Both the position numbers and the translations under genes were made by a program. 64,000 bases of DNA, taken from assembly GCF_056746865.1 (NCBI RefSeq), contig NZ_CM163382.1. One strand, given 5' to 3'. This document shows positions 49,817 through 64,000 of this stretch, one piece after another. The notes under the pieces are model-generated. The model saw nothing but the letters and a program-made list of their open reading frames with translations. It was not told where the DNA came from and ran no database searches. Numbering within the stretch: position 1 is the first letter of the stretch; each line of letters begins with the position of its first letter.

Positions 49817-50977
49817 ATGGAAAGAGTCAGTATTACCGAGCGCCCGGACTGGCGCGAAAAAGCCCACGAATACGGTTTCAATTTTCACACCATGTACGGC
49901 GAACCGTACTGGTGTGAAGATGCTTACTACAAGTTGACCCTCGCCCAGGTTGAAAAGCTGGAAGAAGTCACCGCCGAACTGCACCAGATGTGCCTGAAAG
50001 TGGTTGAAAAAGTGATCGCCAGCGATGAGCTGATGACCAAATTCCGCATTCCAAAACACACCTGGAGTTTTGTGCGCCAGTCATGGCTGACTCACCAGCC
50101 ATCGCTTTATTCGCGTCTTGATCTGGCGTGGGATGGTACTGGCGAACCTAAACTTCTGGAAAATAACGCCGATACGCCAACGTCACTGTATGAAGCCGCA
50201 TTCTTTCAGTGGATCTGGCTGGAAGATCAGCTTAACGCCGGTAACCTGCCGGAAGGCAGCGACCAGTTTAACAGTCTGCAAGAAAAGCTAATCGATCGCT
50301 TTGTCGAGTTGCGTGAACAGTATGGCTTCCAGTTGCTGCATCTCACCTGCTGTCGCGACACGGTGGAAGATCGCGGAACCATTCAGTATTTGCAGGACTG
50401 CGCGACAGAAGCTGAAATCGCTACTGAATTCCTCTACATCGACGATATCGGTTTAGGCGAAAAAGGTCAGTTCACGGATTTACAAGATCAGGTGATTTCT
50501 AACCTGTTCAAGCTGTATCCGTGGGAATTTATGCTGCGTGAGATGTTCTCCACCAAGCTGGAGGATGCAGGCGTACGCTGGCTGGAACCGGCGTGGAAGA
50601 GCATTATCTCCAACAAAGCGCTTCTACCGCTGTTGTGGGAGATGTTCCCGAATCACCCGAACCTGCTGCCCGCTTATTTTGCGGAAGATGATCATCCGCA
50701 AATGGAAAAATATGTGGTTAAACCGATCTTCTCCCGTGAAGGCGCAAACGTGTCGATCATTGAGAACGGCAAAACCATTGAAGCAGCGGAAGGTCCGTAT
50801 GGCGAAGAAGGGATGATTGTTCAGCAATTCCACCCGTTACCGAAATTCGGCGACAGCTATATGCTGATTGGTAGCTGGCTGGTTAACGATCAACCTGCCG
50901 GAATTGGCATTCGTGAAGACCGTGCATTGATCACCCAGGATATGTCTCGGTTTTATCCGCATATTTTTGTTGAGTAA
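49817..50977 (+). CDS. ygiC: ATP-grasp protein homologous to the synthetase domain of glutathionylspermidine synthetase
   Basis: 386 aa; similar to C-terminal half of gss product in same window. Confidence 0.9.
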
Positions 50978-51461
50978 TACTGTTCAATATTGCCCCGTTT
51001 ACCGGGGCAATTTATTATACTTCGCAAATCATCACCCCCATCTATATATAATCAATCACATCCATCACTTTTATTTAACATTAATTCCTAATTTAATATT
51101 AAATCGTCATATGTAAGCGATACTGTAATTAAATTAATCAATAAAATCACTTGGTAACCTATTGTTTTATGAGTTTATTTATATCCAACACCGCATCAAA
51201 AATAGATTTAATAATTAAAAAACAATGTCGCTGGGATCACACTACACAATATTGAATATTGTTATTGATATATTGCCCACCTAGTATCGACCAAAAGAAA
51301 ATATTTGTTACAGAGAAATACAAAAATTCTAAAACCAGTAAAAAATATTCATAACGATTATTATTAATACATTTTAATTCACAAAACAAATTTATTAGCA
51401 CCACCTCAACAGTCGATATTCATCATTATTATATATTTGCGTTATATAAGGAGATATATCC

Positions 51462-53258
51462 ATGTTTGATAAATATAGAAAAACTCTGGTAGCCGGAGCT
51501 GTGGCGATAACTCTGGGTTTGTCAGCACCGGGGGTGATGGCAGCAGGTTTTAAACCCGCACCACCTGCCGGGCAACTGGGTGCAGTCATTGTCGATCCCT
51601 ACGGCAATGCACCACTGACCGCTTTGGTTGACTTAGATAGCCATGTCATTTCTGATGTCAAAGTTACCGTCCATGGGAAGGGCGAAAAAGGCGTAGAAAT
51701 CAGCTATCCCGTGGGTCAGGAATCACTAAAAACTTATGATGGTGTACCGATTTTTGGTCTTTATCAGAAATTTGCTAACAAAGTGACCGTTGAGTGGAAA
51801 GAAAACGGCAAGGTCATGAAAGATGATTATGTGGTGCACACTTCGGCCATCGTCAATAATTACATGGATAACCGCTCTATCTCCGATTTACAACAGACCA
51901 AAGTTATTAAAGTCGCACCGGGTTTTGAAGATCGCCTCTATCTGGTTAATACCCACACCTTTACCGCCCAAGGTTCCGATCTCCACTGGCATGGTGAGAA
52001 AGATAAAAATGCCGGTATCCTTGATGCGGGTCCGGCAACCGGCGCACTACCTTTTGATATCGCGCCCTTTACTTTCATTGTCGATACCGAAGGTGAATAC
52101 CGCTGGTGGCTGGATCAAGACACTTTCTACGATGGTCGTGACCGCGATATCAACAAGCGTGGTTATCTGATGGGTATCCGCGAAACACCACGCGGCACCT
52201 TTACCGCTGTACAAGGTCAGCACTGGTACGAGTTCGACATGATGGGGCAGGTGCTCGAAGATCACAAACTACCGCGCGGATTTGCTGACGCCACTCATGA
52301 GTCCATTGAGACGCCTAATGGCACAGTATTGTTGCGCGTAGGTAAGAGCAATTACCGTCGCGATGACGGCGTACACGTCACCACCATTCGTGACCATATC
52401 CTCGAAGTCGATAAATCTGGTCGCGTTGTCGATGTATGGGATCTGACCAAGATCCTCGATCCGAAACGCGATGCACTGCTCGGCGCGCTGGATGCAGGTG
52501 CAGTTTGCGTTAACGTTGACCTTGCCCATGCAGGACAACAGGCAAAACTGGAACCGGATACACCGTTCGGCGACGCGCTGGGTGTAGGGCCAGGTCGTAA
52601 CTGGGCGCACGTTAACTCAATCGCCTATGACGCAAAAGATGACTCAATCATCCTCTCCTCTCGCCACCAGGGTGTTGTGAAAATTGGTCGTGATAAGCAA
52701 GTGAAATGGATCCTTGCGCCCTCTAAAGGTTGGGAAAAACCGCTGGCCAGCAAGCTGCTGAAACCGGTTGATGCTAACGGTAAGCCAATTACCTGTAACG
52801 AAAATGGCCTGTGCGAAAACTCAGACTTCGACTTTACCTACACCCAGCATACCGCCTGGATTTCCAGCAAAGGAACGCTCACCATTTTTGATAATGGCGA
52901 TGGGCGTCATCTGGAACAACCTGCCTTACCAACCATGAAATACTCCCGCTTTGTGGAATATAAGATTGATGAGAAGAAAGGCACCGTTCAGCAAGTGTGG
53001 GAATACGGTAAAGAACGTGGCTACGATTTCTATAGCCCGATTACCTCCATCATTGAATATCAAGCCGACCGTAACACCATGTTTGGCTTCGGTGGTTCTA
53101 TTCATTTGTTCGATGTCGGGCAGCCAACCGTCGGTAAGTTGAACGAAATCGATTACAAAACCAAAGAAGTGAAAGTGGAAATCGACGTGCTGTCAGATAA
53201 ACCCAATCAGACTCACTATCGTGCACTGTTAGTCCGTCCACAACAGATGTTCAAATAA
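51462..53258 (+). CDS. assT: Periplasmic arylsulfate sulfotransferase (ASST)
   Basis: 598 aa with Sec signal peptide; matches remembered AssT of uropathogenic E. coli. Confidence 0.85.
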   Translation: MFDKYRKTLVAGAVAITLGLSAPGVMAAGFKPAPPAGQLGAVIVDPYGNAPLTALVDLDSHVISDVKVTVHGKGEKGVEISYPVGQESLKTYDGVPIFGLYQKFANKVTVEWKENGKVMKDDYVVHTSAIVNNYMDNRSISDLQQTKVIKVAPGFEDRLYLVNTHTFTAQGSDLHWHGEKDKNAGILDAGPATGALPFDIAPFTFIVDTEGEYRWWLDQDTFYDGRDRDINKRGYLMGIRETPRGTFTAVQGQHWYEFDMMGQVLEDHKLPRGFADATHESIETPNGTVLLRVGKSNYRRDDGVHVTTIRDHILEVDKSGRVVDVWDLTKILDPKRDALLGALDAGAVCVNVDLAHAGQQAKLEPDTPFGDALGVGPGRNWAHVNSIAYDAKDDSIILSSRHQGVVKIGRDKQVKWILAPSKGWEKPLASKLLKPVDANGKPITCNENGLCENSDFDFTYTQHTAWISSKGTLTIFDNGDGRHLEQPALPTMKYSRFVEYKIDEKKGTVQQVWEYGKERGYDFYSPITSIIEYQADRNTMFGFGGSIHLFDVGQPTVGKLNEIDYKTKEVKVEIDVLSDKPNQTHYRALLVRPQQMFK

Positions 53259-53275
53259 TTAAGAAGGGAATAAAA

Positions 53276-53944
53276 ATGTCGAAATTAGGGATCTCATCAC
53301 TATTTAAAACCATACTGCTTACCGCAGCTTTGGCTGTTTCATTTACCGCTTCTGCATTTACCGAAGGCACGGATTACATGGTTCTGGAAAAACCTATTCC
53401 GAATGCCGACAAAACGCTGATTAAGGTATTTAGCTACGCCTGCCCGTTCTGTTACAAGTACGACAAAGCGGTTACCGGTCCGGTATCGGAAAAAGTGAAA
53501 GATATCGTTGCTTTTACTCCATTCCATCTGGAAACAAAAGGTGAATACGGCAAACAAGCAAGCGAAGTCTTTGCGGTCTTGATCAATAAAGATAAAGCAG
53601 CAGGTATTTCATTATTTGATGCTAACTCTCAGTTTAAGAAAGCCAAGTTTGCTTATTACGCGGCTTATCATGACAAAAAAGAACGCTGGTCTGATGGTAA
53701 AGATCCGGCTGCCTTTATCAAAACCGGACTGGACGCCGCAGGTATGAGTCAGGCCGATTTTGAAGCCGCGCTGAAAGAGCCTGCAGTTCAGGAAACGCTG
53801 GAAAAATGGAAAGCCTCTTATGAAGTTGCAAAAATCCAGGGCGTTCCGGCGTATGTCGTCAATGGTAAATACCTGATCTACACCAAGAGTATTAAATCTA
53901 TTGACTCAATGGCAGACCTTATCCGCGAGTTAGCAAGCAAATAA
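53276..53944 (+). CDS. dsbL: Periplasmic thiol:disulfide oxidoreductase, DsbA paralog (CPFC active site)
   Basis: 222 aa; signal peptide; CPFC motif read directly. Confidence 0.85.
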
Positions 53945-53958
53945 CAGGGAAACAGGCT

Positions 53959-54630
53959 ATGGGTATTAAGGGAATGTGGAAAGACCTTCGCACTTCACCG
54001 GTGGACACGCTGGTAAGATGGCAAGAACAACGTTTTTTGTGGTTGTTAATGGCCATTGCGATGGGCGCGTTAATTATCCTGGCGCACTCTTTCTTCCAGA
54101 TCTATCTCTACATGGCACCCTGTGAGCAATGTGTATACATTCGCTACGCCATGTTTGTGATGGTTATTGGAGGATTGGTTGCAGCGATCAACCCAAAGAA
54201 CATCATCCTAAAGCTAATTGGCTGCGTGATGGCATTTTACGGCAGCATTTTGGGACTGAAGTTTTCGCTCAAACTGAACGATATCCACCATGCAGTACAT
54301 AATCCGGATCCCGATTCACTGTTTGGCGTACAGGGTTGCTCTACCGATCCAACTTTTCCCTTTAACCTGCCGCTGGCACAGTGGGCACCAAATTGGTTCA
54401 AGCCTACCGGGGATTGTGGCTATGACGCACCAATCGTTCCTGATGGCGTCACACTGAGCAGCACGCAACAGTGGTTTGTGGAAATGTATCAGCAATCTGA
54501 AGGCTGGTATCTGCTACCACCATGGCATTTTATGAATATGGCTCAGGCTTGTATGCTGGCTTTTGGTATGTGTCTGGTGCTGCTGGTCATTATGAGTGGC
54601 GCATGGGCGCTTAAAATCATCAGAGGCTAA
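53959..54630 (+). CDS. dsbI: Membrane disulfide-bond oxidoreductase, DsbB paralog
   Basis: 223 aa; periplasmic-loop Cys pairs CEQC and C...C; multiple TM helices. Confidence 0.85.
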
Positions 54631-54638
54631 CTCAGCAA

Positions 54639-54675
54639 CACCCGAAGCCAGTCGTTCTGGCTTCGGGTTCTTTTA
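54639..54675. terminator. Bidirectional terminator between dsbI and ygiD
   Basis: acccgaagccagtcgttctggcttcgggt hairpin then tcttttatt. Confidence 0.7.
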
Positions 54676-55464
54676 TTAACCTATCTGCACCGACAGCATA
54701 CTTAAACTGCCCATTTCTATACCATCGACCGGAATGGTAATTGGCTCCTGCCCATCCCACGCACCTAAGACATACAACAACGGCAGATAGTGCTCTGGCG
54801 TTGGATTCGATAACGCGCCACCTTCATGGTCGAGATAATTCACCAGAGGATGCTGCTCTACCGGCCCTTGCCACGTCAGATTCGCTTTCACATACTCATT
54901 AAACGACATCGCCCACGGATACGGTGAACTATCACCGTGCCACTTCACCGTACGCAGGTTATGCACCACGTTACCGCTGGCGACCAACATTATTCCTTCA
55001 TCCCGCAGCGCTGCCAGTTTGCGCCCCATTTCGAAATGCCAGGCGGCAGGTTTGCTACTGTCGATACTCAACTGCACCATCGGGATATCCGCTTGCGGAT
55101 ACATCTTAATCAGCACGCCCCACGAGCCGTGGTCAAAGCCCCAGGCTTCTTTATCCAGCGTCACCGGGACCGGCGCTAACAGCTCAACCAGATGCTGTGC
55201 CAGCGCAGGCGAACCCGGAGCAGGATAATGCGTGTCGTACAGCGCCTGCGGGAAGCCACCAAAGTCATGAATCGTGGGCGGCGTCTCCATCGCGGTCACT
55301 CCTGTTCCACGGGTAAACCAGTGAGCCGAAACCACCACAATCGCTTGCGGGCGTGGCAATGTCATCCCCAACTTCTGCCAGCTGCGGGTATACAAATTAT
55401 CTTCCAGCACGTTCATCGGACTACCGTGACCTAAAAACAATGCTGGCATACGTGTTGAAGACAT
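54676..55464 (-). CDS. ygiD: Extradiol ring-cleavage dioxygenase, 4,5-DOPA dioxygenase-like
   Basis: 262 aa from ATG at 55464 (MSSTRMPALFLGHGSPMN...). Confidence 0.9.
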   Translation of the reverse strand: MSSTRMPALFLGHGSPMNVLEDNLYTRSWQKLGMTLPRPQAIVVVSAHWFTRGTGVTAMETPPTIHDFGGFPQALYDTHYPAPGSPALAQHLVELLAPVPVTLDKEAWGFDHGSWGVLIKMYPQADIPMVQLSIDSSKPAAWHFEMGRKLAALRDEGIMLVASGNVVHNLRTVKWHGDSSPYPWAMSFNEYVKANLTWQGPVEQHPLVNYLDHEGGALSNPTPEHYLPLLYVLGAWDGQEPITIPVDGIEMGSLSMLSVQIG

Positions 55465-55606
55465 GATGATATCCTTAACTAAAGGTGTCATTTTGATATC
55501 CTCACAATACGCTTGTTCGGCGGAGTAAGAACCCGGATAACAATGATGATGATCATCAGTTATTTTGACGATCTGCCTGAAGGTGAAGATTTATAAGGAG
55601 TTGTCG

Positions 55607-56380
55607 ATGTCAGTACCTCTCATTCTGACCATACTGGCGGGGGCAGCCACGTTTATTGGCGCGTTTCTCGGCGTTCTCGGGCAAAAACCCTCGAACCGCT
55701 TACTGGCGTTTTCGCTAGGATTTGCGGCGGGGATCATGTTGCTCATCTCATTAATGGAAATGCTTCCTGCCGCACTAGCAGCTGAAGGAATGTCGCCTGT
55801 GTTGGGTTATGGAATGTTTATCTTCGGTCTGCTTGGCTATTTTGGCCTGGACCGCATGTTGCCACATGCGCATCCGCAGGATTTAATGCAAAAATCGGTG
55901 CAGCCGTTGCCAAAATCGATCAAGCGCACAGCCATTCTGCTCACTCTCGGCATCAGTCTGCATAACTTCCCGGAAGGGATTGCCACCTTTGTCACTGCGA
56001 GCAGCAACCTGGAGCTGGGCTTTGGCATCGCACTGGCCGTTGCGTTACACAATATTCCTGAAGGTCTGGCGGTTGCAGGCCCGGTTTACGCGGCAACGGG
56101 GTCTAAACGCACCGCGATTCTGTGGGCGGGGATTTCTGGACTGGCAGAAATTCTTGGTGGTGTGCTGGCGTGGTTAATCCTCGGTAGCATGATTTCCCCG
56201 GTGGTCATGGCGGCAATCATGGCGGCGGTTGCAGGAATTATGGTGGCGCTCTCGGTTGATGAATTAATGCCGCTCGCCAAAGAGATTGACCCTAATAATA
56301 ACCCCAGCTATGGCGTACTATGTGGAATGTCAGTGATGGGATTCAGTTTAGTGCTGCTACAAACGGCGGGAATTGGTTAA
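55607..56380 (+). CDS. zupT: ZIP-family zinc (divalent metal) transporter
   Basis: 257 aa from ATG at 55607 ([10 protein letters not shown]...). Confidence 0.95.
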
Positions 56381-56437
56381 AAACAACATCAGAAGTTGTC
56401 CAGCGCATGGACAACTTCTGCCAGCTTCACGAAAGCC

Positions 56438-56608
56438 TTATTCTACCTTTTCGGCTGTCTCTTCTCTCGTACTGTTTAAGTATTTGTTCCGCGCTTCAAG
56501 CAGTGCGTCTCTGTCCTGGCGAAACGCCCGACAATAACGTTTCAAATGCAGGAAATAACCCACCACAACCAGAGCAATCAATACAATCCAGTACCAGGCG
56601 ATAAACAT
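56438..56608 (-). CDS. Candidate small single-pass membrane protein, 56 aa from ATG (track ORF starts at upstream TTG)
   Basis: N-terminal hydrophobic helix MFIAWYWIVLIALVVVGYFL then charged tail; aagggtaaaagg precedes ATG; AT-rich upstream region. Confidence 0.45.
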   Translation of the reverse strand: MFIAWYWIVLIALVVVGYFLHLKRYCRAFRQDRDALLEARNKYLNSTREETAEKVE

Positions 56609-56802
56609 CCTTTTACCCTTAATATTTAACAATACTAAACATTTAGCGCATAAATTTCACATATCCTTTTTCGGATATATTCATATGGTCGCATAATAAC
56701 GGAACAATTATATGATTTTGATCATAATGAAAAAGAATGCCTGATATTAATGAAATTTTCTCATAGAAAGAGAAGCGGAATTAACATCTTGCATAGCAGG
56801 GA

Positions 56803-56840
56803 AAAATAAAAACCGAAGCCTGCTACAACTTCGGTTTCTT
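56803..56840 (-). terminator. Rho-independent terminator downstream of ribB
   Basis: aaccgaagcctgctacaacttcggtt hairpin with flanking A/T runs. Confidence 0.65.
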
Positions 56841-56869
56841 GATTAAGGCAGTAAATTAAGCAGCGGTTT

Positions 56870-57523
56870 TCAGCTGGCTTTACGCTCATGTGCCTGACGA
56901 TAAGCCACCAGGTCTTCAATAGTCACGAGCGCCATATTGTGTTTATTGGCAAACTCAATGCACTCTGGTGCACGCGCCATCGTGCCATCGTCATTAGTCA
57001 GCTCACACAGCACACCAGCCGGTTTAAAGCCTGCCAGCGTCATCAGATCAATAGTCGCTTCAGTATGGCCGCCACGCGTCAGTACACCACCAGCCTGAGC
57101 GCGAAGTGGGAAAACGTGGCCCGGGCGATTCAGATCAGAAGGTTTTGCGTCATCGGCAATCGCTGCGCGAACGGTCGTAATACGGTCAGCGGCAGAAACA
57201 CCGGTAGTCACACCTTCAGCCGCTTCAATGGTCACGGTAAAACCGGTGCCATAGGCGCTGGTGTTATTTTCTACCATCATTGGCAGATCAAGTTGTTTAC
57301 GGCGATCTTCAGTAATGCACAGGCAAACAATACCGCTACCGTGGCGAATGGTCAGCGCCATCTGCTCAACGGTCATGGTTTCTGCCGGGAAGATCATATC
57401 GCCTTCGTTTTCACGGTCTTCATCATCAAGCACCATTACACCGCGTCCTTCACGCAGCGCAGCCAGTGCATTTTCAACACGTTCGAAAGGCGTACCAAAA
57501 GAGGAAAGTAGCGTCTGATTCAT
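56870..57523 (-). CDS. ribB: 3,4-dihydroxy-2-butanone 4-phosphate synthase
   Basis: 217 aa. Confidence 0.95.
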
Positions 57524-57599
57524 GGTAAAAAAACCTCACTAAAATTATGGTTACCAGAATCAGGGCAGTCTTAGGAGTGGCGGCATATAGCCAAAATAA

Positions 57600-57770
57600 C
57601 GTGAGCGGGTCCATGCCCGACAGAATCGTTACTCTCTCCCATCCGGACTCTAACCGTCGGCCCCGGAATTACACCGGATCTGCTGTCCTTTGAGTTCGCA
57701 CCCAAAGCGCTCGCGGGCTTTCAACTGAGTTGATTTACCGCCGGTGGGGAATTTCGCCCCGCCCTGAGAA
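57600..57770 (-). promoter_or_regulatory. FMN riboswitch (RFN element) in the ribB leader
   Basis: Minus-strand leader contains conserved RFN segments gggcggggcgaaattccccaccggcgg ... ccgggg ... ggatgggagag upstream of ribB; boundaries approximate. Confidence 0.8.
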
Positions 57771-57896
57771 TAAGCGGATTCACTATAACGCTAATGATTA
57801 GCGCCAGCAACGCATAGCTTCACATAATTCTGGTTTATGACTTACCCTTATCGCACTACAATGGCACTCAACACCTATCAGTACAGGGAAACTACA

Positions 57897-58196
57897 ATGA
57901 TTGACCCGAAAAAAATTGAGCAAATCGCTCGCCAGGTTCACGAATCAATGCCTAAAGGAATCAGGGAGTTCGGGGAAGATGTGGAGAAAAAAATCCGCCA
58001 AACCCTACAAGCGCAACTGACGCGTCTCGATCTGGTGAGCCGCGAAGAATTCGACGTACAGACGCAAGTCCTGTTACGGACTCGTGAGAAACTGGCATTA
58101 CTGGAGCAGCGCATCAGTGAACTGGAAGCGCGCAATAATTCGGTAGCAGATCTTCAATCTCCTCCGGCTATCCCGCCTATTGATAAAGCAGAATAA
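57897..58196 (+). CDS. ubiK: Ubiquinone biosynthesis accessory factor (BMFP/YqiC coiled-coil family)
   Basis: About 99 aa from ATG at 57897 ([13 protein letters not shown]...). Confidence 0.85.
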
Positions 58197-58204
58197 AGCA
58201 ACAC

Positions 58205-58228
58205 AAAAACGGGCCAGACGGCCCGTAA
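58205..58228. terminator. Hairpin terminator between convergent ubiK and glgS
   Basis: acgggccagacggcccgt stem with T-run on minus strand. Confidence 0.6.
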
Positions 58229-58230
58229 TA

Positions 58231-58431
58231 TCAGTGTTCTAATTCAAGTTCTCTGGTTTGCATCATCTGTTGGCAATACCAGGCATAACGTGCGCAAAAC
58301 CAGGTTCTATGTTCTTCATCCATGTTACCAGTAACGGCCAGAATATCGACCGGGCGACCTTCTGCGTGCATTCTGGCAAAACTACGCGCCAGGAAATCGA
58401 AATTATTTAAAGAATTAAGACTATGATCCAT
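58231..58431 (-). CDS. glgS: Surface-composition regulator GlgS
   Basis: 66 aa from ATG at 58431 ([16 protein letters not shown]...). Confidence 0.9.
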
Positions 58432-58699
58432 AAGCACATCCTCCGGTTATCGCATACCTTTTAAGGCCATATGCTTTTTCTGATTTCAGTATTCCCCAAT
58501 CAGTGTAGTGCCTTTAAACATAACGTGCGTAAATATATTGTCCCCGATCACACTTTTTAGTGAAAAATAAAAAACCATATTAAAAGACTTTCTCTTCCAG
58601 AACTTCTCTAACATGTGTTATTATTAACAAAGATAAATGTAAGCAAGGAAACTATCCTAAAGTAAATATTGCGTCACTAAATGGACATTGGAGTGACAT

Positions 58700-59329
58700 A
58701 TGATTTTATTCGCCGACTATAACACCCCTTATCTTTTCGCTATTTCCTTTGTACTGTTGATCGGCCTTTTAGAAATTTTTGCGCTTATCTGCGGTCATAT
58801 GCTCTCCGGTGCTCTTGATGCACATCTTGACCATTATGATTCCATAACCACAGGTCATATTAGCCAGGCACTTCATTATCTCAATATCGGAAGATTGCCA
58901 GCTCTCGTCGTTCTCTGCTTACTGGCTGGTTTTTTTGGTCTTATTGGCATCCTGTTGCAGCATACCTGCATCATGGTCTGGCAATCACCACTCTCGAACC
59001 TGTTCGTGGTTCCTGTCAGTTTACTGTTTACGATTATTGCGGTGCATTATACCGGTAAAATAGTTGCGCCCTGGATTCCACGCGACCATAGTTCAGCTAT
59101 TACAGAAGAAGAATATATTGGTAGCATGGCGTTAATTACCGGACATCAAGCGACTTCAGGTAATCCCTGCGAAGGAAAACTCACCGATCAATTTGGCCAA
59201 ATACATTATTTACTACTGGAGCCTGAAGAAGGAAAAATTTTCACTAAAGGAGACAAAGTGTTAATTATTTGCCGACTTTCTGCAACGCGATATTTGGCGG
59301 AAAACAATCCCTGGCCCCAAATATTGTAA
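58700..59329 (+). CDS. yqiJ: NfeD-like inner membrane protein
   Basis: 209 aa with N-terminal TM helices and C-terminal OB-like domain. Confidence 0.85.
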
Positions 59330-59355
59330 TTTATTAATCAAAAGGAAATTTAATA

Positions 59356-61017
59356 ATGGATGATATTGTTAATTCTGTGCCCTCCTGGATGTTTACCGCA
59401 ATTATTGCCGTATGCATTCTGTTTATTATTGGAATTATTTTCGCCAGGCTCTATCGTCGCGCTTCGGCAGAGCAAGCTTTTGTTCGTACTGGTTTAGGTG
59501 GGCAAAAAGTGGTAATGAGCGGTGGCGCAATCGTGATGCCGATCTTTCATGAAATAATCCCCATCAATATGAATACCCTGAAGCTGGAAGTCAGCCGCTC
59601 AACCATTGATAGCCTGATTACGAAAGATCGTATGCGCGTCGATGTCGTGGTCGCTTTCTTTGTGCGGGTAAAACCTTCAGTTGAAGGGATTGCCACCGCC
59701 GCCCAGACGCTGGGACAACGCACCCTGTCGCCTGAAGACTTACGTATGTTGGTTGAAGATAAATTTGTCGATGCCCTCCGTGCAACAGCTGCACAAATGA
59801 CCATGCATGAGTTACAGGATACCCGCGAGAACTTCGTGCAGGGAGTACAAAATACCGTAGCTGAAGATCTGTCGAAAAACGGCCTGGAACTGGAAAGCGT
59901 TTCACTTACCAACTTTAACCAGACGTCGAAAGAACATTTCAATCCTAACAACGCCTTTGACGCCGAAGGTTTAACCAAGCTGACGCAGGAGACGGAGCGC
60001 CGTCGTCGCGAACGTAACGAAGTTGAACAGGATGTAGAAGTTGCGGTGCGTGAGAAAAACCGTGATGCGCTTTCGCGCAAGCTGGAGATTGAACAACAAG
60101 AAGCGTTTATGACGCTTGAGCAGGAGCAGCAGGTTAAAACCCGTACCGCTGAGCAGAATGCGAAAATTGCGGCTTTTGAGGCCGAGCGTCGTCGGGAAGC
60201 AGAGCAGACGCGAATTCTGGCTGAACGACAGATTCAGGAAACGGAAATCGACCGCGAACAGGCCGTCCGTTCCAGAAAAGTTGAAGCTGAACGTGAAGTT
60301 CGCATTAAAGAGATCGAACAGCAGCAGGTCACCGAAATCGCCAACCAGACGAAATCGATCGCTATTGCCGCCAAATCGGAACAGCAGTCACAAGCGGAAG
60401 CGCGTGCCAACCTTGCACTTGCAGAAGCGGTAAGCGCCCAGCAAAACGTTGAAACCACTCGCCAGACCGCAGAAGCCGATCGTGCTAAACAAGTTGCCCT
60501 AATCGCTGCCGCGCAGGACGCGGAAACCAAAGCAGTCGAACTGACCGTCCGGGCGAAAGCTGAAAAAGAAGCCGCAGAGATGCAGGCGGCGGCAATCGTT
60601 GAGTTAGCCGAAGCTACGCGTAAAAAGGGTCTGGCGGAAGCAGAAGCGCAACGTGCGCTGAACGACGCTATCAACGTACTTTCTGACGAGCAAACCAGCC
60701 TTAAATTCAAACTGGCGCTATTACAATCATTACCTGCGGTAATAGAGAAATCCGTTGAGCCGATGAAGTCCATTGACGGCATCAAGATTATTCAGGTCGA
60801 TGGATTAAACCGAGGTGGCGCTGCGGGGAATGCGGCATCAGGCAGCGTTAGTGGCGGAAACCTGGCAGAACAGGCATTGTCTGCCGCCCTTTCTTACCGC
60901 ACACAGGCACCACTGATTGACTCCTTGCTCAATGAAATCGGTGTTTCTGGCGGCTCGCTGGCGGCATTGACTTCACCCTTAACATCAACAACTCCCGTCG
61001 AAGAAAAAACAGAGTAA
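59356..61017 (+). CDS. yqiK: SPFH/band-7 (flotillin-like) membrane protein with long Ala/Glu/Arg-rich coiled coil
   Basis: 553 aa; N-terminal TM helix, SPFH domain, extended EAE/AEA-rich region. Confidence 0.9.
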   Translation: MDDIVNSVPSWMFTAIIAVCILFIIGIIFARLYRRASAEQAFVRTGLGGQKVVMSGGAIVMPIFHEIIPINMNTLKLEVSRSTIDSLITKDRMRVDVVVAFFVRVKPSVEGIATAAQTLGQRTLSPEDLRMLVEDKFVDALRATAAQMTMHELQDTRENFVQGVQNTVAEDLSKNGLELESVSLTNFNQTSKEHFNPNNAFDAEGLTKLTQETERRRRERNEVEQDVEVAVREKNRDALSRKLEIEQQEAFMTLEQEQQVKTRTAEQNAKIAAFEAERRREAEQTRILAERQIQETEIDREQAVRSRKVEAEREVRIKEIEQQQVTEIANQTKSIAIAAKSEQQSQAEARANLALAEAVSAQQNVETTRQTAEADRAKQVALIAAAQDAETKAVELTVRAKAEKEAAEMQAAAIVELAEATRKKGLAEAEAQRALNDAINVLSDEQTSLKFKLALLQSLPAVIEKSVEPMKSIDGIKIIQVDGLNRGGAAGNAASGSVSGGNLAEQALSAALSYRTQAPLIDSLLNEIGVSGGSLAALTSPLTSTTPVEEKTE

Positions 61018-61211
61018 ACCCTCTTCTATGAATAATCCCTGGCCCAAAAAGCCGGGGATTTTTTATATCTGCGTTCCGCTAAAAGGTGCAAATGATCAGG
61101 CTGTTGCAGCATTTTGCGTGACCGCTCGGGGAAGGGAAAACTGCCTCTGGGAAAGCGTTGCGCGGGGTCTGGCGCTCATCAACAATCGGGGAGTCAGCAG
61201 GGGGCTGAAAC

Positions 61212-61352
61212 GGGAAAGCCCCTCCCGAAGAAGGGGCCTTATAGAAGGAAAGGGTTATGATGAAGCTCGTCATCATACTGATTGTGTTGTTACTAGTAAG
61301 TTTCCAGGCTTATTAACAACCAATTCAGAGGGGGGAGAAATCCTCCCTTACC
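61212..61352 (-). ncRNA. sibD: Sib antisense sRNA (antitoxin), copy 1; ends approximate
   Basis: Antisense to ibs ORF; minus-strand terminator hairpin gccccttcttcgggaggggc plus T-run at about 61217-61240. Confidence 0.55.
61257..61316 (+). CDS. ibsD: Ibs type I toxin, 19 aa (MMKLVIILIVLLLVSFQAY)
   Basis: Hand-translated; hydrophobic 19-mer typical of Ibs; ggaaaggg SD-like sequence upstream. Confidence 0.7.
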   Translation: MMKLVIILIVLLLVSFQAY

Positions 61353-61588
61353 CTTGTTCCTTTACTTTAGGTTGAAAAAAAATCAGCGTCAAGAAGGTTT
61401 CTCTATCCCACATCCCTGGCCCAAAAAGCCGGGGATTTTTTATATCTGCGTTCCGCTAAAAGGTGCAAATGATCAGGCTGTTGCAGCATTTTGCGTGACG
61501 GCTCGGGGAAGGCAAAACTGCATCAGGGAAAGCATTGCGCGGGGTCTGGCGCTCATCAACAATCGGGGAGTCAGCAAGGGGCTGAAAC

Positions 61589-61729
61589 GGGAAAGCCCCT
61601 CCCGAAGAAGGGGCCTTGTATAAGGAAAGGGTTATGATGAAGCTGGTCATCATACTGATTGTGTTGTTACTCGTAAGTTTCGCAGCTTATTAACAGCCAA
61701 TCAGAGGGGGGAGAAATCCTCCCTCACCC
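61589..61729 (-). ncRNA. sibE: Sib antisense sRNA (antitoxin), copy 2; ends approximate
   Basis: Same architecture as copy 1. Confidence 0.55.
61634..61693 (+). CDS. ibsE: Ibs type I toxin, 19 aa (MMKLVIILIVLLLVSFAAY)
   Basis: Hand-translated; differs from copy 1 by Q17A. Confidence 0.7.
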   Translation: MMKLVIILIVLLLVSFAAY

Positions 61730-61812
61730 TTGTTCCTTTACTTTAGGTTGAAAAAAAAACAGCGTCAATAGGCCTGCCAGGTTCGAAGCGAGATCTGTGA
61801 ACCGCTTTCCGG

Positions 61813-63246
61813 TTAGCCTTTTTTATCCTGTTGGATCTTCTTGATGATGTTGGTCGTCGAGCAACCGTCTTCAAAGTTGAGCACCAACACTTCGCCACCG
61901 TTGGCCCAGACTTCTTTACTCCCGGCAATCTCTTCTGGTTTATAGTCGCCGCCTTTCACCAGCAGGTCTGGCAAGATCCCGGCGATCAGGCGCTGCGGCG
62001 TGTCTTCTTCAAACGACACCACCCAGTCGACCGCTTCCAGTGCACCCAGCACAATCATACGCTGCTCGAGAGGGTTAACGGGGCGGGAATCCCCTTTCAG
62101 CCGTTTGGTGGAAGCATCGCTGTTGACGGCGACAATCAAACGGTCACCCAGTTTACGGGCATTTGCCAGATAAGAGACGTGCCCGGCGTGCAGGATGTCA
62201 AAGACGCCATTGGTCATTACCACCTTTTCGCCGCGTTTACGCGCCGCCGCCACAGCAAGCTTCAGTTCCTCTTCGGTCATCACACCAAAGCCGGTATCTG
62301 CACGTCCACGTACTGCGTTTTCCAGCTCGATCGGCGAAACCGTGGATGTCCCCAGTTTGCCGACCACTACGCCTGCCGCCGCATTAGCAAAGAAGCAGGC
62401 TTCTTCCAGCGAATTACCCGCCGCCAGCGTTGCCGCCAGGACACCAATCACCGTGTCGCCCGCACCGGTAACGTCATACACTTCCTGCGCCTGAGTTGGC
62501 ATATGCAGCGGCGTTTTGCCCGGTTGCAGCAGCGACATACCCTGTTCGGAACGGGTCACTAACAGAGCCGAGAGTTCGTAATCGGCAATCAGTTTCATGC
62601 CGCGTTCAACAATCTCTTCTTCGGTCTTACATTTACCGACAACAGCTTCAAATTCCGAGAGATTCGGCGTTAACAGCGTAGCGCCGCGGTAGCGCTCAAA
62701 ATCGGTGCCTTTTGGATCAATCAGCACCGGAACGCCCGCTTTACGCGCCAGTTGGATCATCTGCTGCACGCTTGCCAGCGCACCTTTCGCGTAGTCAGAG
62801 AGCACCAGCGCGCCAATCGAACTCAGCGCCTGATTAATCCGCTCGTGCAGCGGCTGCGGATCAACCCCTTCGAAACCTTCTTCAAAATCCAGACGGATCA
62901 GCTGTTGGTTGCGGGAAAGTACCCGTAATTTGGTGATGGTCGGATGCGTCGGTACAGAAACGAAGTCGCATTTGACGTTGACGTCGGCCAGAGATTTACT
63001 CAGCGCGCGCGCTGCATCGTCAATGCCCGTCAACCCGACCAGGCGTGCATTAGCACCGAGAGAAGCGATATTCATCGCCACGTTAGCCGCGCCGCCCGGA
63101 CGTTCTTCGATGGTATTCACTTTAACCACGGGCACCGGCGCTTCCGGCGAGATACGACTGGTGGGGCCGTACCAGTAACGATCCAGCATCACATCACCAA
63201 CCACCATCACTCCTGCACGTTCAAACTCTGGCAGCGTTACTTTCAT
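61813..63246 (-). CDS. hldE: Bifunctional D-beta-D-heptose 7-phosphate kinase / D-beta-D-heptose 1-phosphate adenylyltransferase
   Basis: 477 aa; N-terminal ribokinase-like and C-terminal cytidylyltransferase-like domains. Confidence 0.95.
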
Positions 63247-63293
63247 TCCTGTCTCCTGAGAGATTCAAAATTTGCGCGCGATAATACCATACT

Positions 63294-64000
63294 TCATTCT
63301 TCCACCAGCCACTTCTGCCAGCTTGCCCGCACCAGTTCACGCTCTGCGGTGAAGCAATCCTCCGACACATGGCCCGGCAATTCCTGTAATGCCAGATGAT
63401 GAAGTTCATCGCGCAGCGTCGTGTAAGCACGGGTCAGCGCCATCGCTTCCTGCTCTTCCATAATGTCGTTTTGCGCCAGTAGTTCCAGAATGCGCACGTT
63501 GTCTGACCAGCGCGTTAACTTCGGTTTTTCATGAGCGTAGCGCAACACCAGATATTGAGTAATAAATTCGATATCGGTAATTCCGCCTTCATCGGCTTTG
63601 ATATCAAAGCGATCGCGATGTTTATTGCCGAGATGGGCACGCATTTTCTCGCGCATTTCCCGCACTTCTGTTTGCAGGGTTTTGCCTTCGCGCGGCAGCG
63701 TCATAATCTCCCGGCGTACTGCGTCAAAGTGCGCGGTGAGCTGCGGATCGCCGTACACTACACGCGCACGCACCAGCGCCTGATGTTCCCACGTCCAGGC
63801 CTCGTTTTTCTGATAATCGGCAAACGCTTCTGCGGAGGTAACCAGCATTCCCGCCGCCCCGGACGGACGCAGTCTAGCATCCACTTCATACAAAATGCCG
63901 GAAGAGGTTCGCGTACTGAACAGATGCATAATGCGTTGCGCCAGACGCAGATAAAACTGTCGCCCGTCGATTTCCCGCTCGCCGTCAGTCATCGCATCCA
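63294..64000 (-). CDS. glnE: Glutamine synthetase adenylyltransferase, C-terminal part (gene continues beyond window end)
   Basis: Open minus-strand frame to window edge; track ORF 63294-63992 is an internal Met of a longer protein. Confidence 0.85.

Follow-up and report, generated by a model that had tools for sequence, protein, structure and literature searches.

Anatomy of the ubiK-glgS junction

In the window (the whole 64-kb stretch of DNA analysed here, from an ST69-like E. coli), ubiK (plus strand) and glgS (minus strand) lie tail to tail. According to the sequence and the list of Open Reading Frames (ORFs), their stop codons, TAA at 58194-58196 for ubiK and 58231-58233 (minus strand) for glgS, are 34 bp apart. 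The junction and its left side contain the following features.

56870..57523, minus strand: ribB, the left neighbour of ubiK
57627..57775, minus strand: FMN riboswitch in the ribB leader, in the divergent ribB-ubiK region (Rfam RF00050, 120.9 bits)
57897..58196, plus strand: ubiK (yqiC), 99 aa, with an ancestral-type C-terminal tail (ORF list, Pfam BMFP, RefSeq annotation)
58197..58230, no strand: ubiK-glgS spacer, 34 bp between the convergent stop codons
58199..58226, minus strand: predicted intrinsic terminator of glgS, stem ACGGGCC/GGCCCGT and loop GUCU followed by UUUUUGUGUU (terminator scan and folding)
58231..58431, minus strand: glgS, 66 aa, surface composition regulator (ORF list, Pfam GlgS, RefSeq annotation)

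The window UbiK matches the Pfam family BMFP (PF04380) over residues 1-78 (E = 1.6e-27; 96.2 bits against a cut-off of 37.2), which places it in the UbiK family. This profile covers the N-terminal amphipathic region and the coiled coil, and the variable tail of the protein starts outside it, at residue 78. The glgS product matches Pfam GlgS (PF08971) over its full length (residues 1-66 of 66; E = 1.1e-45, 153.9 bits). Strain 118UI is identical to the window over 57700-58700, and RefSeq also names the two genes there ubiK and glgS. Because the Pfam matches and the RefSeq annotation agree, the identities of both genes are secure.

Using tblastn with the K-12 proteins YgiL, YqiG, YqiH and YqiI as queries, no homologue was detected in the 64-kb window, and the same search found no gene set of fimbrial subunit, PapC-type usher and PapD-type chaperone there. 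The initial annotation had described a 34-bp ubiK-glgS junction without a fimbrial block, and this holds to the base, the spacer being exactly 58197-58230 (AGCAACACAAAAACGGGCCAGACGGCCCGTAATA). It had also taken the window to be non-K-12, which agrees with the absence of the K-12 cluster and with the 100% identity between the window and ST69-type strains across 24 kb.

The spacer contains a hairpin (ACGGGCC-AGAC-GGCCCGT, 58209-58226) with a GC-rich 7-bp stem and a 4-nt loop. Its 56-nt context folds far better than shuffled sequences on either strand (z = -4.9 to -5.0), and the folding energy is -17.7 kcal/mol on the plus strand and -20.6 kcal/mol on the minus strand. An intrinsic (Rho-independent) terminator was defined by a GC-rich stem of at least 5 bp, a loop of 3-8 nt and a U-rich tract directly after the stem. 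On the glgS strand all three are present, with 7 pairs (6 of them G-C), a 4-nt loop and the tail TTTTTGTGTT, and the terminator scan calls the hairpin on this strand only. On the ubiK strand the tail UAAUAUCA does not amount to a U-tract, and a shared or bidirectional terminator was not found, as the scan returned no plus-strand terminator and the plus-strand tail TAATATCA has no U-tract. The “shared hairpin terminator” proposed earlier needs correction: a hairpin does lie between both genes, but it has canonical form for glgS alone. Judged from its letters and predicted fold, it is a canonical predicted intrinsic terminator for the glgS strand, and glgS transcription would end at the hairpin with its U-tract. 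It probably also impedes read-through from ubiK, though it is non-canonical on that strand and would be at most a partial barrier. A second, weak terminator-like match, a 5-bp stem followed by a T-run, is located at 57918-57930 on the minus strand, opposite the beginning of the ubiK reading frame; about one such weak match is expected by chance in the region.

The stem of the spacer hairpin is invariant across genera and its loop is variable. The side of the T-tract differs by genus: it lies on the ubiK strand in several Citrobacter loci (L008, L014, L018 and L020), on the glgS strand in Escherichia, and on both strands of the Raoultella spacer (L071/L072). Since the tract changes side with the stem kept, the gene that has the canonical terminator differs by genus.

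The K-12 arrangement and the three states in E. coli

In MG1655 the gene order is ubiK, ygiL, yqiG::IS2I, yqiH, yqiI, glgS, with 6,608 bp between the stops of ubiK and glgS. This bears out the statement in the initial annotation that K-12 carries an IS2-interrupted chaperone-usher cluster (ygiL, yqiG, yqiH, yqiI) at this place, and K-12 does not share the direct junction. A blastn comparison with K-12 shows homology up to 58127, a position inside ubiK, and again from 58200 on; therefore the replaced segment is 58128-58199 and not just the 34 bp of the spacer. The two places in the window that concern fimbrial operons are listed below.

58128..58199, plus strand: segment that K-12-type genomes lack, 72 bp (last 22 ubiK codons, stop codon and 3 bp)
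56609..56872, no strand: second fimbrial site, unoccupied in the window (yqiD-ribB spacer and ribB stop codon)

In K-12, 58128-58199 is replaced by 6,637 bp (K-12 locus L001, 2072-8708). The old spacer and its hairpin are retained downstream of yqiI, and 31 of the 34 spacer bases are also found in K-12, at the right end of its island. The K-12 proteins YgiL, YqiG, YqiH and YqiI match the Pfam families Fimbrial, Usher, PapC_N/C and PapD_N/C, and the G+C content of the K-12-type island is 40.1% vs 50.8% for the window. The annotated content of the K-12 island consists of fimbrial genes and IS2 only, with no integrase or recombinase gene. No flanking direct repeats pair positions 2072 and 8708 of L001, where only the terminal inverted repeats of IS2 were found, and ARAGORN detected no tRNA at 50000-64000 of the window.

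The yqi operon of the K-12 type is often decayed. For example, IS2 lies in yqiG of K-12 (L001, 3097-4427), yqiH is frameshifted in O111:NM (L083, 12705-13453), and the usher gene has internal stops in N51 (L084, 10185-12689) and AR437 (L085, 10186-12684). In other strains, IS1, IS5, ISVsa5, IS421 or IS903B is found in the operon.

UbiK has 99 aa in the window and 96 aa in K-12; the two proteins are identical up to residue 77 and differ after it. The K-12 protein ends in NRSTEIKKQPDPETLPPTL, a tail that is unique among the loci listed (at least 80; one genome per species with UbiK). The window tail contains SPPAIPPID, and the outgroup genera have the corresponding motif PAPAIPPVD, with the common core PAIPP; the window-type motif occurs in Citrobacter, Salmonella and Enterobacter. 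E. coli thus has two UbiK C-terminal tails, a 99-aa ancestral form without the island and a 96-aa form in the K-12 type (window 58128-58196 vs L001 2072-2131), and our literature search found no report of this dimorphism. The C-terminal end of UbiK has been modelled as flexible, with a predicted coiled coil at residues 53-80 (PMC9499169). As the swapped tail lies outside the BMFP profile, largely beyond the coiled coil and in a flexible region, a functional effect of the swap is possible and unproven.

The two arrangements were counted in 5,426 complete E. coli genomes. Of these, 2,062 have the direct junction in one piece and 62% (3,362 of 5,426) have the K-12-type cluster, so that the two complementary classes account for 5,424 genomes. 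The left and right K-12 junctions are found in 3,255 and 3,305 genomes, respectively, and with the K-12 junctions as queries the alignments of all direct-junction genomes end at the same bases. The K-12-type island itself exists as two deep alleles, with at least 99% and about 94.5% identity to K-12.

A second site for a related operon lies 1.3 kb to the left of the junction. In strain 23AR0806, a paralogous operon is located between yqiD and the ribB stop codon, and ubiK and glgS adjoin directly. A query spanning both sites breaks at its position 973, equal to window position 56872, in about 995 genomes, among them APEC O1 and ST131, and a lower-stringency search finds the paralogous operon (65% identical) in about 999 genomes. 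ExPEC genomes do not carry the operon between ubiK and glgS: the B2 strains APEC O1 and ST131 have the direct junction, and their ExPEC adhesin I (EA/I, Yqi) operon lies between yqiD and ribB. Three states of the locus can therefore be counted in E. coli:

K-12 type (Yqi-like operon at ubiK/glgS): 3,362 genomes
EA/I type (operon at the ribB stop codon; B2/ExPEC genomes): 995-999 genomes
Neither operon: 1,068-1,072 genomes

The last count was obtained by subtraction (4,430 - 3,362) and agrees with the number of genomes without a blastn match (5,426 - 4,354 = 1,072). The window belongs to the class with neither operon at the two sites, as does O157:H7. The genome totals and the two empty sites in the window suggest that its genome has no Yqi-family operon elsewhere either.

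Two other differences were observed nearby. The assT (aryl-sulfate sulfotransferase)-dsbL-dsbI genes, at 51462-54630 between ygiC and ygiD, are present in the window, in 118UI and in the B2 strain 23AR0806, and absent from the O111, N51 and AR437 loci, in which ygiC and ygiD are direct neighbours. These genes constitute a second presence/absence difference, at a distance of about 4 kb from the ubiK-glgS junction. Moreover, two tandem Sib antitoxin RNAs (61242-61392 and 61619-61768, minus strand; Rfam RF00113, 142 and 150 bits) lie with Ibs toxin ORFs between yqiK and hldE of the window, as in K-12 (sibD/sibE). In 118UI and 23AR0806 there is one annotated ibs gene and the spacer is about 380 bp shorter, therefore the Sib copy number varies.

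Ancestral state and origin of the K-12-type island

The outgroup scan covered one genome per species with UbiK and at least 80 loci; E. fergusonii and several Escherichia clades are not among the loci listed. In every listed locus that has glgS, ubiK and glgS converge directly. These include E. albertii (L010), a cryptic Escherichia clade labelled “E. coli” (L003), eight Citrobacter, Salmonella enterica arizonae (L022), Superficieibacter, Pseudocitrobacter, Raoultella and Klebsiella. The outgroup spacer is 28-73 bp long, except for 241 bp in Superficieibacter electus (L032), and a homologous spacer of 28-34 bp is found in E. albertii, the cryptic clade and Citrobacter. The hairpin with its ACGGGCC and GGCCCGT arms occurs in most outgroup loci. 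The window-type UbiK tail is likewise shared with outgroups, which marks the window arrangement as ancestral, since a deletion could not have restored this tail. A direct junction had been read as a missing cluster; it is better described as the ancestral state, common to other genera. The anatomy of the junction, its identity, the population counts and the outgroup state are direct observations, and taking them together we consider it highly probable that the window keeps the ancestral uninterrupted enterobacterial junction, that the K-12 type is derived, and that the island represents one old event, probably an import.

The sequences beside the breakpoints bear on how the island arrived. Sliding mismatch counts and pairwise matrices, in which the window was compared with the island-bearing haplotypes of K-12, O111, N51 and AR437, define two flanks linked to the haplotype.

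58013..58127, plus strand: left haplotype-linked flank, with clustered synonymous differences from all island-bearing haplotypes
58200..58273, no strand: right haplotype-linked flank, with differences from all island-bearing haplotypes, including GlgS T59A

On the left, 18-20 differences, all synonymous, fall in 168 bp (57960-58127), compared with 4-6 in the 790 bp before them. The right border has 13 differences in about 100 bp (58200-58300), followed by 0-3 in the next 300 bp. Beyond these border segments the window and the island haplotypes differ by about 0-1%, and within them the window is separated from the K-12 type by as large a distance as from E. albertii. When the differences are polarised with E. 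albertii and the cryptic clade L003, 15 are found in the K-12 type alone and 5 in the window alone; coming from short borders (about 100-170 bp), this count lends only modest support to an import.

Since the same two junctions always recur and the borders of about 100 bp are diverged, we infer one old event; the shared junctions point to a single insertion. In the proposed course, the derived K-12-type genomes would have gained a low-G+C, 5.3-kb chaperone-usher operon (ygiL-yqiGHI, Yqi-like fimbriae), whose arrival would have replaced the last 22 ubiK codons with a new tail. IS2 would have entered yqiG later, in K-12. Homologous recombination, with the crossovers placed in ubiK and glgS, may have passed the island as an allele from one E. 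coli lineage to another. The donor was most likely a diverged lineage resembling Escherichia, in which the island already occupied this position; among the listed species loci (at least 80, E. fergusonii not among them), none has the ubiK-yqi-glgS arrangement.

The main alternative to import is an old polymorphism within the species, which concerns only the origin of the island and not the nature of the window junction. Here the island would have entered an early ancestor of E. coli a single time, with both haplotypes kept since and the 100-bp borders diverged because recombination cannot break linkage beside a heterology of 5 kb. Divergence reaches the background level no more than about 100-170 bp away from the breakpoints, which fits such indel linkage, and the two deep island alleles (at least 99% and about 94.5% identity to K-12) indicate a long stay in E. 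coli. However, the border divergence equals or exceeds the distance between E. coli and E. albertii, and the excess of differences unique to the K-12 type fits better with a donor outside the E. coli/E. albertii group. The remodelled UbiK tail also keeps a faint P..LPP pattern, as if it came from a distant ubiK. We regard the within-species polymorphism as clearly less probable than the import.

The locus had also been called a variable integration hotspot, and a part of this stands. The locus is polymorphic (2,062 vs 3,362 of 5,426 genomes), two alternative sites 1.3 kb apart receive related fimbrial operons and give three states in E. coli, other genera carry Yqi-like operons next to ribB, and presence/absence differences (assT-dsbL-dsbI and the Sib copy number) occur nearby. 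It is improbable, however, that the ubiK/glgS spacer has been entered repeatedly by different mobile elements. Different cargo at the same site was not seen, as the direct junction and a single insert type explain 5,424 of 5,426 genomes; the left and right junctions are the same everywhere; and nothing is inserted at the junction in any listed outgroup genus with glgS. With no tRNA, no integrase and no flanking direct repeats except the IS2 ends, a hotspot of the integrase type was rejected, and the idea holds only in the weak form of two nearby alternative sites for related fimbrial operons.

Loss of ygiL-yqiGHI from the window lineage by a precise deletion that left the 34-bp junction is the least probable explanation, and very improbable: the frequent decay of the K-12-type operon (IS2 and other IS insertions, the yqiH frameshift, usher stops) makes loss plausible in itself, but neither the 22 ancestral codons of the UbiK tail nor the ancestral SNPs at the borders could be restored by a deletion, the window holds no island remnant, the break falls at identical bases in all 2,062 genomes with the direct junction, and the window tail and spacer match those of E. 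albertii, clade L003, Citrobacter and Salmonella. Deletion was rejected on this sharing of tail and spacer with the outgroups. The window lineage could also once have had the island and regained the ancestral allele by recombination, which would look identical to never having had it.

Coming back to the preferred reading, an ancestral window junction and an old imported island, the direct junction as such is known and ordinary genome variation, annotated in thousands of genomes, and Yqi and Yqi-like fimbriae have already been described in print as patchily distributed and mutually exclusive (PMC3559732, PMC2771359). The corrective point is that K-12 has the derived state at the ubiK-glgS locus. 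Its three states (no operon at either site, EA/I beside ribB, Yqi-like between ubiK and glgS) make the locus a simple marker. The insertion also altered the UbiK C-terminus, and K-12 UbiK departs from the Salmonella or ancestral protein after residue 77. Should this tail be important for the Ubi metabolon, K-12 would be an atypical reference. Tentatively, and with less confidence than for the ancestral junction, we suggest a capture from outside E. coli that rewrote 19-22 residues of UbiK, together with an exclusivity of Yqi and Yqi-like operons that arises from the proximity of their sites; as a pair these two propositions are rather unlikely both to be right. If the capture is true, there are two UbiK isoforms, an ancestral one in about 38% and a chimeric one in about 62% of complete genomes, the latter including K-12, where UbiK has been studied.

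Comparison with known fimbrial operons and terminators

The ExPEC adhesin I (EA/I, Yqi) operon was described from B2 strains of APEC/UPEC and reported to be lacking in K-12 and O157 (Antao et al. 2009, PMC2771359). Yqi fimbriae (B2) and Yqi-like fimbriae (A, B1, D and E) are closely related and mutually exclusive (Wurpel et al. 2013, PMC3559732). This published exclusivity may reflect two sites only 1.3 kb apart, whose occupants behave as alleles of one three-state locus.

The EA/I operon is a paralogue of the K-12 cluster, with amino acid identities of 59% for the major subunit, 56% for the usher, 49% for the chaperone and 37% for the adhesin. Both lie in the same neighbourhood, and EA/I carriers have the direct ubiK-glgS junction. 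Unlike the K-12 cluster, the EA/I operon lies 1.3 kb further left, at the stop codon of ribB, where the window has no insert. Among the loci listed, the syntenic operon of Klebsiella spallanzanii is the closest to EA/I (usher identity 71%), and Yqi-like operons next to ribB are syntenic in Klebsiella, Enterobacter, Citrobacter and Pseudocitrobacter. In Enterobacter sp. MGH 24 (L029, 2-8564), two tandem chaperone-usher operons of the Yqi family are found beside ribB, one EA/I-like (usher identity 68%) and the other of the common Enterobacter type (45%). The K-12 ygiL-yqiGHI operon, the Yqi-like type of PMC3559732, occupies the exact window junction in 62% of genomes, and the window, without the operon, corresponds to the state before insertion.

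The spacer hairpin can be compared with Rho-independent terminators between convergent genes, including bidirectional ones. It resembles them in its GC-rich 7-bp stem, its 4-nt loop and the stop codons converging on it, and also in an A-tract flanking the stem on one side, which corresponds to a U-tract on the glgS strand. It differs from bidirectional terminators in that the window hairpin is canonical on one strand only.
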